Shown: positions 13,389 to 57,986 of the stretch, piece by piece
Layout: each line of letters starts with the position of its first letter
How positions within the stretch are numbered: position 1 is the first letter of the stretch
NCBI GenBank assembly: GCA_963768425.1
Contig: CAVYHV010000017.1
Span: forward strand, 32,001-96,000
Length of the DNA stretch: 64,000 nucleotides
From: Candidatus Bathyarchaeota archaeon
GTDB lineage: Archaea > Thermoproteota > Bathyarchaeia > Bathyarchaeales > Bathycorpusculaceae
Direction of reading: 5' to 3'
Notes under the pieces: generated by a model
Database searches by the model: none
The model's input: the letters and a program-made list of their open reading frames with translations, nothing else
Told to the model about the DNA's origin: nothing
Made by a program: the position numbers and the translations under genes

Positions 13389-13436
13389 TGGCGGGTGAGT
13401 GGACCTCCATCCGTTCCGCCATTATAAAACCCGGAG
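13389..13436 (+). ncRNA. Candidate preQ-type riboswitch-like pseudoknot, leader of queC-queT
   Basis: TGGCG/CGCCA stem, loop TCCG able to pair with CGGA, unpaired C before the P1 3' strand, tail TTATAAAACCCGG; 34 nt after TATA TTTAAAAA (13355). Confidence 0.5.
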
Positions 13437-13450
13437 TAGGAGGAAAAAGT

Positions 13451-13573
13451 TTGAAAATCGAGAAAACAAAAAAGGTAATATTGGGTGTTTTTGCCATTTT
13501 GATAATGGCCTCAACCGAACTTGTGATCCAACAATTTAGTCATTCTTTGCCTTTTTTTGAGGTGGAAACATGA
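13451..13573 (+). CDS. Possible 40-aa hydrophobic leader ORF coupled to queC
   Basis: SD-like AGGAGG, TTG start, MKIEKTKKVILGVFAILIMASTELV..., TGA overlapping the queC ATG (ATGA). Confidence 0.4.
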   Translation: MKIEKTKKVILGVFAILIMASTELVIQQFSHSLPFFEVET

Positions 13574-14331
13574 GGAAAGCAGTTGTAATGTGTAGCGGAG
13601 GCGTTGATTCCGTTACAACTCTTTATTTCGTTGCGAAAGTGATTCGAGCCAACCCGATCTTGGTCATAAACGCAGATTACGGTCAACGGATGGTCAAGGA
13701 AGAGCGCTGGTGTGTGAAGAAGGCTGTTGAAGATTTGGAGAGGCAAGGCTTCAAAGCTACTTACAAAGAAATCGACATTTCGTGGATGAAAGAGCTTTCC
13801 ACAAGTTTGTTGGTCAAAGATGATGTTCCTGTGCCGGAGACACCTAAAGAAGATATCTGGGATGCAGGGAAAGCGAGAGAGAGAATTCTTAGATGGTGGG
13901 ATGTTGTTCGCAACACGATGTTGCTGACTATCGGCCTGGCTCATGCAGAACACTTTGATTTAGACAGTTACATCAAAACAAAAGAACGCGACATCTACGA
14001 TGTTTACATAGGAATCAGAAGAGAAGGACCCGTTATGATGAAGGACAACACCCCGGAATTCGTTGCGGAGATGAATCGTCTTGTTGAGCATGCAACTCAC
14101 TTCGGCGGATACAAAATCTCAGCGCCCCTGCTTGAAGTCGACAAAGACGGCACGGTTGCATTGGGAAAAGCATTAGGTGTCAACTTCTTGTACACCTACA
14201 GCTGCTACCAAGGATGGGACTGGACCGAAAAAGGTGAACCTGTCCATTGCGGCTTCTGCAGTAACTGCCGACGAAGAAAAGAAGCTTTTACCCTCGCTGG
14301 AATACAGGACCCAAGCAAATACGCACGTTGA
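13570..14331 (+). CDS. queC: 7-cyano-7-deazaguanine (preQ0) synthase QueC-family protein
   Basis: SGGVDS PP-loop, DYGQR, RN, APLL..DK, TYSCY and HCGFCSNCRRR Zn motif, AGIQDP. Confidence 0.85.
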   Translation: MRKAVVMCSGGVDSVTTLYFVAKVIRANPILVINADYGQRMVKEERWCVKKAVEDLERQGFKATYKEIDISWMKELSTSLLVKDDVPVPETPKEDIWDAGKARERILRWWDVVRNTMLLTIGLAHAEHFDLDSYIKTKERDIYDVYIGIRREGPVMMKDNTPEFVAEMNRLVEHATHFGGYKISAPLLEVDKDGTVALGKALGVNFLYTYSCYQGWDWTEKGEPVHCGFCSNCRRRKEAFTLAGIQDPSKYAR

Positions 14332-14816
14332 AAAACATGAAAACTAAAACCATAGCAGTTGCCGTTATCTACGCCTCGCTTTACGCTGCGTTGGTCATCG
14401 TGTTGGGACCGTTCAGTTATGGACCTGTACAAGTACGAATAGCCGACGCGATGGTGGCTTTAGTCCCGATCTTCGGCTGGGCTGGAATACTTGGACAGGC
14501 ATTAGGGGTCTTCATATCTAACATTTTCAGTCCACTCGGCTGGATTGACCTGCTAAACACGATTCCAAGCTTCATAATGGCATATGCAATTTGGAAACTA
14601 AGAAACACAAGCGTTATCGCGGGAACAGTAATGTACTCGATAGTGCTGGCAGTCACCGTAGGCGCAATGCTTAGTTACGTGTACGGACTGCCGCTAATCG
14701 CCGAATTCGCCTACGTGCTGATAGGAAACCTAATTGCATCAACAGTCATCGGATACCCAGTGTACAAAGCGATCAAGAAAACAAACCTCCAAAGACGGCT
14801 TGAAACCGAAAAGTGA
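14328..14816 (+). CDS. queT: QueT-family queuosine-precursor transporter (ECF S component)
   Basis: IYASLYAALVIVLGPFSYGPVQVRIADAM...G.FISNIFSPLGWID signature. Confidence 0.85.
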   Translation: MKNMKTKTIAVAVIYASLYAALVIVLGPFSYGPVQVRIADAMVALVPIFGWAGILGQALGVFISNIFSPLGWIDLLNTIPSFIMAYAIWKLRNTSVIAGTVMYSIVLAVTVGAMLSYVYGLPLIAEFAYVLIGNLIASTVIGYPVYKAIKKTNLQRRLETEK

Positions 14817-55136: not shown

Positions 55137-57218
55137 TCAATGTTTCGCCTCTTTTTCACTTAGTTGCTCAAGCATAGTCACCAAGCTGTTGGTAGCTGGT
55201 AGGCAGGTCTGGTCGCGGCACACATAGGCAGTTGTTTTGCCTTCGATTTGCTGGTAACCTAAGCCTCCCTTATCTGGATGCTTAAGTTGGACTACGGTTG
55301 TTGGCAGGTAATGTTGCCTCAATATCTTGAGCATTTCTAGCGTGTCTTTTGAGTTGATGTCGCCGACGACTGTGACCATGTAGGATGGACCAAGCTGAAA
55401 GTCAAGTCCTGAGAGAAAGAACGTGTAGGCGTCGGGTGCCCCTTCAACTTCTGCAGCAAAAGTCTTAATCATTTGGGTTGCCATCTGGTCGTAAGTAGGC
55501 TCGTTGGTCAAGCGGCTAAGCCACAGCAAGTCAATAAGTGCCACTGAGTTGCCTGATGGAATTGCGCCGTCGTAGAGTTGCTTGATTTTAGGCATGCCCG
55601 CGGGTGCGCTTTGTGTTTGGTAGAATCCTCCGTTCTGCTTATCCCAAAACTTGCTGACCATGCTTTTAGCAAGGTCTGCGGCGGCTTGAAGGTACACATC
55701 ATTGAACGTTACCTCGTAAAGCTGCATTAACCCATACGTTAAGTAGGCATAGTCGTCTAGAAACGCCTCAATTGCAACTTCGCCTTTCGCGTAACGATGA
55801 TACAAAACATCGCCTTTGCGCATGTAATTCAATATGAAGTCTGCAGTCTTAGATGCCGCATTCAAGATACGCTGGGGTCCCAAACACACTCCCAGCTTTG
55901 GCCAAAGCTGCAATCATCAGGCCATTCCAATCGGCCAAGATCTTGTCATCAACCGGCTGGAGCAACCCGTTTCTGTCTCTGCTTTAAAAAGGGCATTTTG
56001 GATTTTTCCCATCTCCATAATCAGCTGATCGATTGTCAAACCCTTGTATGAAGCAAGGTCTTCAAGGGGTTCTGCGATGTGGAGAATGTTTTTGCCGTTG
56101 GCATGCCCTCTTTCGTCAGGGTAGTTTCCTTCTGGTTTTAAGCCGTAGAGGTGCACTGCCAGCTCTGCATCTGCAGGAGATAGAACATCGAGAACTTCAT
56201 CGACCGTCCACAGGTAAAATTTGCCTTCTTCACCCTCGGAGTCAGCATCCTGAGCTGAGAAAAACCCGCCTTCCCCACCCGCAGGCAAATCACGAAGAAC
56301 ATATTCTATTGTTTCTTTCGCTGTTATTTTGAACTTGGGCGCACCTGTCGCCTGATAGGCCTCAGCATACGCCATTATCAGCAACGCTTGGTCGTAGAGT
56401 GTTTTTTCGTAATGCGGAACTAGCCAGCTGGGGTCGGTGCTGTACCTGTGAAATCCAAAACCGAGTTGGTCAAAGATTCCGCCCAAACGCATTTGGCGTA
56501 AAGTGTTTTCAGCCATAGACAGCGCATTTTTCTCTCCTGTGTGAGAATAGTGACGCAGAAGATAGAGGATTTTGTGTGGAGTAGGGAACTTTGGTGCTGA
56601 CCCGAACCCGCCGTTTTCTTTGTCGTATTCCAGCTTTAGACGGTCGAACCCATCCTGCAAGACTTCTGTGGTTAGTTGGTTTTGGGGTGTTCGTTTTTCG
56701 ACGGCTTCTATGCGTGATTTGATGTCAGCGCCCACCATTTCCATTTGGGAACGCTGGGTTTTCCATATTTGCGTCACCTGCGGCACAAGATCCAGCATGC
56801 CGATTATTCCTGGCCGACTGTGTTTGGGTATGTAGCTCTGAGCATAAAATGGGTTCAATTTAGGCGTCATTATTATGTTAAGGGGCCAGCCGCAGTTTCT
56901 GCCCATAGCCTGGCAAACTGCCATGTACGAAGCATCTAAGTCTGGTCTTTCTTCGCGGTCAACCTTTATGCATACAAACGCTTGGTTAAGCAAATCTGCA
57001 ACTTGATTGTCGCTGAAGCACTCCATTTCCATGACGTGGCACCAGTGACAGGTCGAATAGCCTATGCTGAGGAAAATTGGCTTTTCTTCTGCTTTGGCTT
57101 TAGCTAAAGCTTCTTGTCCCCATGGGTACCAGTCTACTGGGTTGTAGGCGTGTTGGAGAAGGTAGGGGCTTTTTTCATTGATAAGCCTATTGGACTTTGT
57201 TTCCTGTTTTGGCTGCAT
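55137..57218 (-). CDS. YyaL/SSP411-family thioredoxin-domain protein; frameshift ~55950
   Basis: [51 protein letters not shown] and FLDDYA. Confidence 0.92.
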
Positions 57219-57447
57219 AAAAGGTGCCTTCTTGTTTTCAATATGTTCAGTGTCTTTTATTAACTGTTAGGGTTTGGAGACTTCTTTTTTTCAACACGTT
57301 TACTTCTGATGAAACCCGCCATCCTATTGGGGTCTCTTCTTGAACGCGAAGGAAGCCTTGTCCAAGCTGCTGCCGAGCGCCTTTGAATTGAATAAACAGG
57401 GAATGAAGAAATTTAAATAGTTCTGGATTGATAGTTGCGTTTCTCGC

Positions 57448-57485
57448 GGTAGTTTCCGTATATAACCTACCTTAAAAAACCCGGG
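57448..57485 (+). ncRNA. Candidate preQ1-I-like riboswitch aptamer, leader of queT
   Basis: GGTAG-TTTCCGTATATAAC-CTACC-TTAAAAAAC-CCGGG; 36 nt after TATA TTTAAATA (57412); abuts the start region. Confidence 0.6.
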
Positions 57486-57494
57486 TTGAATAAA

Positions 57495-57986
57495 ATGAAA
57501 TTGAATGCCAAACAATTAGCTGTGATGGCTATCTTCGCCGCCTTGTACGCGGTTGGAGTTATTTTTTTGGCGCCCATAAGCTTCGGTCCAGGCCAAATAA
57601 GAGTTGCTGACGCAATGTTGCCTTTGACGATGATTTTTGGGCTTCCGAGCGCGTTTGGTCTCAGCTTAGGTTGCTTGGTCTCTAATATTTATAGTCCATT
57701 TGGAGCAATCGACATATTTGGTGGGGCAGTTGCAAATCTAGCCGCCTGCGTTCTAGGATGGTACATTGGAAGGAACGGAGGAAGGATTCTACGTTTTGCA
57801 GCAACCATTTTGCAGTCAGCTATAGTTGCTTTAATCGTTGGAACGTACCTTTCACCGTTGACTAGTGTGCCTCTGATGCTAAGCATATTCGGAGTGCTTA
57901 TTGGAGAAATCGTTGCAATCAACATCATTGGGTATCCACTTCAAGAAGCCATCAGGCGGAGCAAAATCTTCAGCAAATTCAGTTAA
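57495..57986 (+). CDS. queT: Second QueT-family transporter
   Basis: IFAALYAV..FLAPISFGPGQIRVADAM...GCLVSNIYSPFGAIDIFGG. Confidence 0.88.
   Translation: MKLNAKQLAVMAIFAALYAVGVIFLAPISFGPGQIRVADAMLPLTMIFGLPSAFGLSLGCLVSNIYSPFGAIDIFGGAVANLAACVLGWYIGRNGGRILRFAATILQSAIVALIVGTYLSPLTSVPLMLSIFGVLIGEIVAINIIGYPLQEAIRRSKIFSKFS

Follow-up and report, generated by a model that had tools for sequence, protein, structure and literature searches.

A candidate preQ0/preQ1 riboswitch in the queT leader of a Bathyarchaeia family and a larger motif before other queT and queC genes of the lineage

The stretch of DNA analysed here (the window) comprises 64,000 nucleotides (nt) of a Candidatus Bathyarchaeota archaeon genome (assembly GCA_963768425.1, contig CAVYHV010000017.1, positions 32,001 to 96,000), and it carries a 38-nt RNA element, which we named V1, at 57448-57485, preceding the queT gene at 57495-57986. 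V1 is in our view very likely to be a real conserved cis-regulatory RNA, and we consider it reasonably probable that this RNA is a translational riboswitch for preQ0 or preQ1. A larger leader motif, which we named V2, is found before most other queT genes of the lineage, and in the window it precedes queC and a second queT gene. As a more tentative reading, Thermoproteota might use two distinct preQ0 riboswitches, with V1 as a miniature class-I-like pseudoknot and V2 as a larger aptamer.

Sequence, conservation and variation of V1

The first-pass annotation of this DNA, made from the letters alone, had pointed to a TATA box, a GGTAG/CTACC stem, a 14-nt loop, an A-rich tail and CCCGGG ahead of queT, and each of these features was found where it had been placed (Table 1). 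GGTAG begins 36 nt after the start of the TATA-like box TTTAAATA; the 14-nt loop TTTCCGTATATAAC (57453-57466) has T as its first base, G as its sixth (57458) and TAAC at its end; and CCCGGG at 57480-57485 is followed by the ATG at 57495-57497. The pairing proposed between the loop UCCG and CGGG is also possible as regards complementarity, since TCCG (57455-57458) can pair with CGGG (57482-57485) when one G-U pair is included, and the assignment of the downstream gene to queT was borne out by its PF06177 match (Table 1; Pfam cut-off 33.7 bits). A comparable A/T box lies 21-33 nt upstream of helix P1 at the other V1 loci. Going by the usual archaeal spacing between TATA box and transcription start site, TTTAAATA would act as the promoter and transcription would start at about 57442, a few bases before P1.

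The case for V1 is carried by conservation, because its shape by itself is not beyond chance. A class-I-like descriptor, consisting of a stem of 5 bp with G-C as its closing pair, a 10-16-nt loop with U first and AC last, six A among the nine bases after the stem and a 4-bp loop-to-tail pairing, found three sites in the 2.96-Mb genome, and 10 block-shuffled genomes gave 1.4 on average. Shapes of this kind are not rare; it is the position directly before queT, together with the conservation, that goes beyond chance.

Conservation in orthologous leaders had been set beforehand as a check on the riboswitch proposal, and the outcome was strongly positive. A tblastn-type search of the relatives of the window's genome (n = 60) gave QueT homologues in 50 of 61 genomes. 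The six closest of these homologues (59-77% identity, same genus) all have the same leader of about 40 nt, with flanks that diverge, and the nearest QueT homologues without V1, which bear on a conceivable joint transfer of queT and a bacterial preQ1-I into the lineage, are archaeal proteins of 42-50% identity. R2, a covariance model made from V1, scored 45.8-73.3 bits in 20 of 120 genomes of the genus, where the next best match reached 21.5 bits. In a class-wide sample it matched 2 of 151 genomes, namely the window's own and G184, which belongs to a sister genus of the same family (49.1 bits). Over 13 loci, mean pairwise identity was 0.97 within the V1 motif versus 0.63 in the 60 nt upstream, 0.76 over the first 150 coding bases and 0.50 at third codon positions. 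Selection on the motif, as judged from these sequences, appears to be strong.

A search pattern that left the P1 3′ strand free (N) and fixed many of the other positions matched 59 metagenome stretches, 50 of which have a matching P1 5′ strand and a queT-like start. The nine without the P1 5′ strand were set aside as chance matches, by eye (L208, L219, L241, L243, L246, L248, L249 and L257) and by further exclusion with a filter. The V1 alignment (A7) has 57 rows; one true match, L223, was left out of it, as it runs off its contig.

Within V1, the P1 pairs counted in A7 are, from the first to the closing pair, G-C in 56 rows and A-U in one, G-C in 57, U-A in 56 and C-A in one, A-U in 57, and G-C in 57. 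The closing pair (G57452-C57467) is altered in the copy of G395, which has A at that G. The UU of L1 is invariant in 57/57 rows of A7 (in whose metagenome rows the pattern had fixed it), at the six orthologous loci and at eight loci found with R2; the AC before the P1 3′ strand was likewise found at the six orthologous genome loci and the eight R2-found loci, and was pattern-fixed in the metagenome set. In L2 the third base takes all four letters and the fourth is A or U, the others being fixed. All copies have an A-run of 6-7 in L3, followed by one or two further bases (CC, C or GC) before the P2 strand, so that the last A does not adjoin P2. The "extra CC" of the first-pass annotation is hence no fixed feature, as it may be one base or two and is GC in one genome. 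CCG/CGG complementarity is present in every copy except that of G395, where the tail reads CAG, and in other copies the P2 3′ strand continues into Shine-Dalgarno-like GGUGA(U) or GGGAG. Taken as sequence evidence, the support for P1 is modest, and P2 is conserved but unproven. The G395 copy (L312, G395:C5:863893-863935) is possibly a riboswitch in decay.

The larger motif V2 before other queT genes and queC

R1, the covariance model of V2, found one copy of the larger motif in the window's genome (Table 1). From its 5′ end, V2 consists of a 5-bp G/C-rich P1, an invariant GUGA, an inner hairpin, CCG, UU and the P1 3′ strand, and continues with an A-rich linker, a C-run, CGG, two or three bases and a Shine-Dalgarno (SD) sequence of the GGAGG type. 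The anti-SD is the 3′ strand of the inner hairpin. Since this hairpin and the anti-SD/SD helix draw on the same bases, only one of them can form at a time, and the predicted alternation between them is an explicit switch. Pair counts were made on 85 distinct sequences. P1 was paired in 100% of them, with G-C as closing pair in 69 and C-G in 16, and the anti-SD/SD helix was 93.7% paired versus 48-63% in slid controls. In this helix, changes on both sides occurred at 5 of the 7 pairs, giving 78 such cells versus 22.6 in shuffles. The bulge CCG and the tail CGG were invariant in the 85 sequences. The register that RNAalifold gave for the inner hairpin differs from our manual reading. No Rfam family matched V2 at an expect value (E) of 1 or below on 16 loci, and V2 may be a new aptamer class.

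Of the 151 genomes in the class-wide sample, 94 were matched by R1, in most cases at a single site; in a phylum-wide sample, likewise of 151, there were matches in 30, with three families outside the class among them. Among the 80 pattern matches listed, out of at least 120 stretches in genome contigs, 29 were full R1 matches, all of them archaeal; by their record titles they belong to Bathyarchaeota/Bathyarchaeia, to Nitrososphaerota/Nitrososphaeria, to unclassified archaeon metagenome-assembled genomes and, in one case, to Methanomethylicota. Many of the remaining listed matches were chance matches in G+C-rich bacteria. One R1 match in G054 was dropped as a T-arm-like sequence, apparently part of a tRNA. 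Further subtypes of V2 were also seen (L273-L276, L290; L278-L288), in one of which the tail CGG is missing and AAAA separates the C-run from the SD, while another has GUGG in place of GUGAGUGG.

The first open reading frame (ORF) after V2 was QueT by Pfam in 24 of the 29 class-level matches. A rescan of six of those 29 ORFs at E≤0.01 added one sub-threshold QueT match (27.1 bits, cut-off 33.7), and three ORFs of about 230 amino acids gave no Pfam match at E≤0.01 in single rescans, one of the three being weakly QueT-like at E 0.027. In some Bathyarchaeia (L051, L054, L060 and L064), V2 directly precedes multi-pass membrane proteins of 229-234 amino acids with no Pfam match and a weak N-terminal likeness to QueT; judged by sequence, each may be a divergent or new 7-deazaguanine transporter. 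The first ORF behind the V2 copy of the window, with 40 codons and a hydrophobic middle, starts 7 nt past the SD. Its TGA overlaps the ATG of queC (ATGA), which suggests that the two are translationally coupled, and the ORF might encode either a leader peptide or a small membrane protein.

V1 and V2 are found in the same lineage before the same gene family, with a start codon close behind, and they have in common a 5-bp P1, CCG, an A-rich linker, a C spacer and a tail CGG. GUGA and the inner hairpin, whose anti-SD strand can alternatively pair with a full GGAGG-type SD, are confined to V2, whereas V1 alone has UU after P1 and AC before the P1 3′ strand, above a G-C closing pair that holds in all rows of A7. 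In V2 the P1 3′ strand is preceded by UU without AC, and the closing pair is G-C in some copies and C-G in others; given this U and the flipping closing pair, V2 cannot use a class I pocket. R1 did not match V1 in a genome search up to E 10. V2 was not found in nine of the ten other V1-bearing genomes, and V1 appears to take the place of V2 before one QueT clade for this reason. The tenth, G030, is like the window's genome in having V2 before a second queT; the two queT paralogues of the window's genome are about 40% identical and have different leaders, and two leaders are likewise present in G030. By sequence, V1 as the leader of one QueT clade and V2 as the leader of the others look like functional equivalents. 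In the two-riboswitch reading given at the outset, V1 would be confined to one Bathyarchaeia family, and V2, a hairpin with a CCGUU bulge, GUGA, an A-rich linker and an anti-SD/SD toggle, would be spread over Bathyarchaeia, Methanomethylicota and Nitrososphaerota metagenome-assembled genomes.

Table 1. Coordinates in the window of V1, V2 and the genes behind them
Feature	Position	Strand	Remark
TATA-like box TTTAAATA, candidate queT promoter	57412-57419	+	From sequence; a purine-rich stretch precedes it
V1 P1 5′ strand GGUAG	57448-57452	+	Pairs with 57467-57471
V1 L1 UU	57453-57454	+	U6/U7 position of class I preQ1 riboswitches
V1 candidate P2 5′ strand UCCG	57455-57458	+	Complementary to 57482-57485
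V1 L2 UAUAUAAC, 3′ end AC	57459-57466	+	C57466 is the candidate specificity base
V1 P1 3′ strand CUACC	57467-57471	+	Partner of GGUAG 57448-57452
V1 L3: UU, six A, CC spacer	57472-57481	+	TTAAAAAA at 57472-57479
V1 candidate P2 3′ strand CGGG	57482-57485	+	Overlaps a weak ribosome-binding G-run 10 nt before the ATG
queT (QueT-A), putative controlled gene	57495-57986	+	PF06177, 105.6 bits, E 3.6e-30
V2 copy	13389-13445	+	R1 63.2 bits, E 2.3e-13; sole match in the genome at E≤1
V2 P1	13390-13394/13416-13420	+	Part of V2
V2 GUGA	13395-13398	+	Part of V2
V2 inner hairpin	13399-13402/13407-13410	+	Part of V2
V2 anti-SD CCUCC	13404-13408	+	Part of V2
V2 bulge CCG	13411-13413	+	Paired with C13432 and GG 13433-13434
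V2 UU	13414-13415	+	Before the P1 3′ strand
V2 A-rich linker	13421-13429	+	Part of V2
V2 SD GGAGG	13439-13443	+	Part of V2
Small ORF, 40 amino acids	13451-13573	+	First ORF behind V2
queC	13570-14331	+	QueC PF06508, E 3.2e-36
Second queT	14337-14816	+	PF06177, E 2.7e-26

The riboswitch reading and its alternatives

In the mechanism that we favour, 57448-57485 would serve as both aptamer and expression platform at the 5′ end of the queT mRNA. It would fold into an H-type pseudoknot in which the 5-bp P1 GGUAG/CUACC is followed by the six-A linker running along P1 and by a P2 of 3-4 bp (UCCG/CGGG) before the start codon. A 7-deazaguanine, most likely the archaeosine precursor preQ0, would be stacked between P1 and P2, paired with C57466 and flanked by U57453 and one linker A, as preQ1 is in bacterial class I. 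Binding would stabilise P2 and so hide the G-run that serves as the ribosome-binding site. The element would accordingly be a translational OFF switch, by which synthesis of the importer stops when the base is plentiful. Going by the pathway context, preQ0 is the most likely ligand of V1, because QueC and QueD are present in the window's genome, QueF was not found there, and a long, archaeal-type TGT is present in 38 of the 41 genomes searched (the window's own, without TGT, and 40 relatives). The V2-bearing leaders of other queT genes and of queC-queT offer a functional analogy that speaks in favour of V1 as a riboswitch.

Several observations weigh against the riboswitch reading. No Rfam family reached its gathering threshold on V1 when the whole 64-kb window was searched. 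The first-pass annotation had named the preQ1-I (RF00522), preQ1-II and preQ1-III models as a check, and that check came out negative: neither these three nor, apart from the two weak hits given below, any other Rfam family matched at E≤10 on 57300-57600 (301 bases) or on 57443-57492 (50 bases), and the ten best RF00522 matches genome-wide scored 13.4-15.3 bits, at a gathering threshold of 39 bits, with none at the V1 locus. (Weak matches to SNORD58, E 1.2, and to a viral pseudoknot, E 7.7, on 57300-57600 were rejected as noise.) The one or two C between the last A of L3 and P2 depart from the bacterial consensus.

The comparison of copies also counts in part against the proposal. Covariation, which the first-pass annotation had put forward as a test, was present in P1 as a single compensatory pair type, A-U for G-C at the first pair (L250 and G355), and was lacking in P2, for which the loop strand never varies and hence can give no such support. 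In P1, L214 shows a C-A mispair and G184 has U-U as the first pair, and the apparently decaying copy of G395 combines two disruptive changes, A for the closing G and CAG for CGG. The fourth P2 pair is U-G or U-A in most copies and fails, as U-U or U-C, with CGGU or CGGC tails. Pattern-fixed positions in the metagenome set are, moreover, invariant by construction. In single-sequence folding, the minimum free energy of V1 was -7.4 kcal/mol (z = 0.39) and the fold differed from the proposed one. Neither V1 nor V2 was more stable than shuffled sequences in such folding, although single-sequence stability says nothing for or against a pseudoknot. With respect to the pathway, no TGT (PF01702) was found in the window's own assembly, which is 91% complete; of 24 other genomes of the genus, 22 have TGT, and its absence here is probably an assembly gap. 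As to expression, a single metatranscriptome contig spans 57820-58000 only, with the leader outside that span.

Some of these points would suit a conserved structured leader that senses no small molecule and is instead a site for a protein or RNA, or an element of mRNA stability or basal translation. A protein-binding hairpin would likewise show conservation and a stem, covariation in V1 is almost nil, no Rfam riboswitch model matches it, and riboswitches are rare in archaea, for which McCown 2017 (PMC5473149) lists only the classes named below. We nevertheless think such a leader unlikely. The loop and linker bases that remain unpaired are near-invariant over 38 nt (0.97), as is typical of a ligand pocket with tertiary contacts; every sequence-level feature of the class I pocket, as laid out in a 2024 preQ1 review (PMC11625349) and with the ligand-reading A of L3 as a candidate, is at the right place in V1; V1 is restricted to queT; and metabolite feedback accounts for the SD-masking V2 on other queT and queC genes better than a general stability element does. 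The presence of V1 and V2 in one genome would be explained if V1 were a riboswitch for a different ligand (guanine, archaeosine base, queuine or another 7-deazapurine taken up by this QueT paralogue). In keeping with this, the roughly 40%-identical queT paralogues of the window's genome and of G030 have two different leaders, the C spacer and long L2 of V1 are unlike bacterial class I, and the substrate of archaeal QueT is putative. A different ligand is nonetheless quite improbable, as the C before the P1 3′ strand, U6 and the G-C floor together make up the class I set for recognising the guanine face in the same review sections, and as V1 is the sole que-type leader found in nine of the ten other V1 genomes, which suggests that the ordinary need is covered by it.

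The repeat GGTAG/CTACC might, finally, act in DNA, as the operator of a transcription factor controlling queT. It is a 5-bp inverted repeat just downstream of a TATA-like box, and the change from G-C to A-U preserves a DNA palindrome as well as an RNA pair. The conserved block, however, is strongly asymmetric, with the A-run and CGG on one side only; it reaches the start codon and keeps a constant orientation to the gene; and the helices of V2, kept via G-U pairs and pairing the SD with a distant anti-SD, are sensible in RNA only. An operator would surprise us more than either of the other two alternatives, and a translational riboswitch for preQ0 or preQ1 is the reading that we retain.

A gene for a DUF255/thioredoxin-domain protein (PF03190, E 3.9e-72) at 55137-57218 on the - strand is split into two ORFs. 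It has two consecutive TGA codons at 55919-55914, and over the break a more plausible protein is encoded in a different frame. From its sequence the gene seems to be frameshifted, by assembly error or by decay.

Novelty and comparison with known riboswitches

The archaeal riboswitch classes named in the sections of McCown 2017 used here (PMC5473149) are only those for thiamin pyrophosphate (TPP), fluoride and flavin mononucleotide (FMN), Mg2+-I and guanidine-II; the 2024 preQ1 review (PMC11625349) lists only bacterial phyla and never mentions archaea. A search of the literature, covering mainly open-access main texts, turned up no preQ0 or preQ1 riboswitch from an archaeon. V1 is a good candidate for the first riboswitch of the preQ1 kind in archaea. 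If the readings given here are true, 7-deazaguanine metabolism in archaea would have its first known riboswitches in V1 and V2, the folds for this ligand family would number four with V2, the supply of the archaeosine precursor would be under direct RNA control, and there would be a natural test of how a class-I-like pocket handles preQ0 where preQ1 is not made. V1, at only 38 nt, suits work on binding and structure, and V2 is abundant, shows clear covariation and is found in uncultured lineages that dominate anoxic sediments.

PreQ1-II (RF01054) is described in the review sections as limited to Bacillota and as burying the Shine-Dalgarno of queT in its pseudoknot, and this burial is the logic that is seen in V2 and that we infer for V1. 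PreQ1-II is unlike V1 in being about twice the size and in forming an HLout pseudoknot with four helices, according to the same sections, and neither preQ1-II nor preQ1-III (RF02680) matched V1, or any of 16 related loci at E≤1. V1 also differs from preQ1-I. It was undetected by the RF00522 model at any threshold tried, its L2 has 8 nt and its P2 would have the sequence CCG/CGG, and its host is an archaeon without detectable QueF, because of which preQ0 rather than preQ1 would be expected as the ligand. V1 is a putative rather than a proven member of preQ1-I, since the RF00522 model does not recognise it and both its P2 and its ligand are predictions.

The likeness to preQ1-I that the first-pass annotation had claimed therefore did not extend to the RF00522 model, but it did hold feature by feature for the hallmarks given in the review sections. 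These describe the class I pocket as a C on the guanine face, U6 in L1, an A in L3 and a G-C floor, and they name AC before the P1 3′ strand as the mark of types II and III and UU as a mark of types I and III (PMC11625349). Like types II and III, V1 is proposed to form a very small H-type pseudoknot, in which P1 has 5 bp and a G-C closing pair; the 5′ strand of P1 is immediately followed by U(U) and its 3′ strand immediately preceded by AC; L3 is A-rich; and a candidate P2 of about 4 bp would join the loop to a 3′ tail in contact with the ribosome-binding site. V1 is located before queT, as preQ1-I riboswitches can be, and resembles preQ1-I in its sequence features, with P2 and the ligand-reading A of L3 as candidates.

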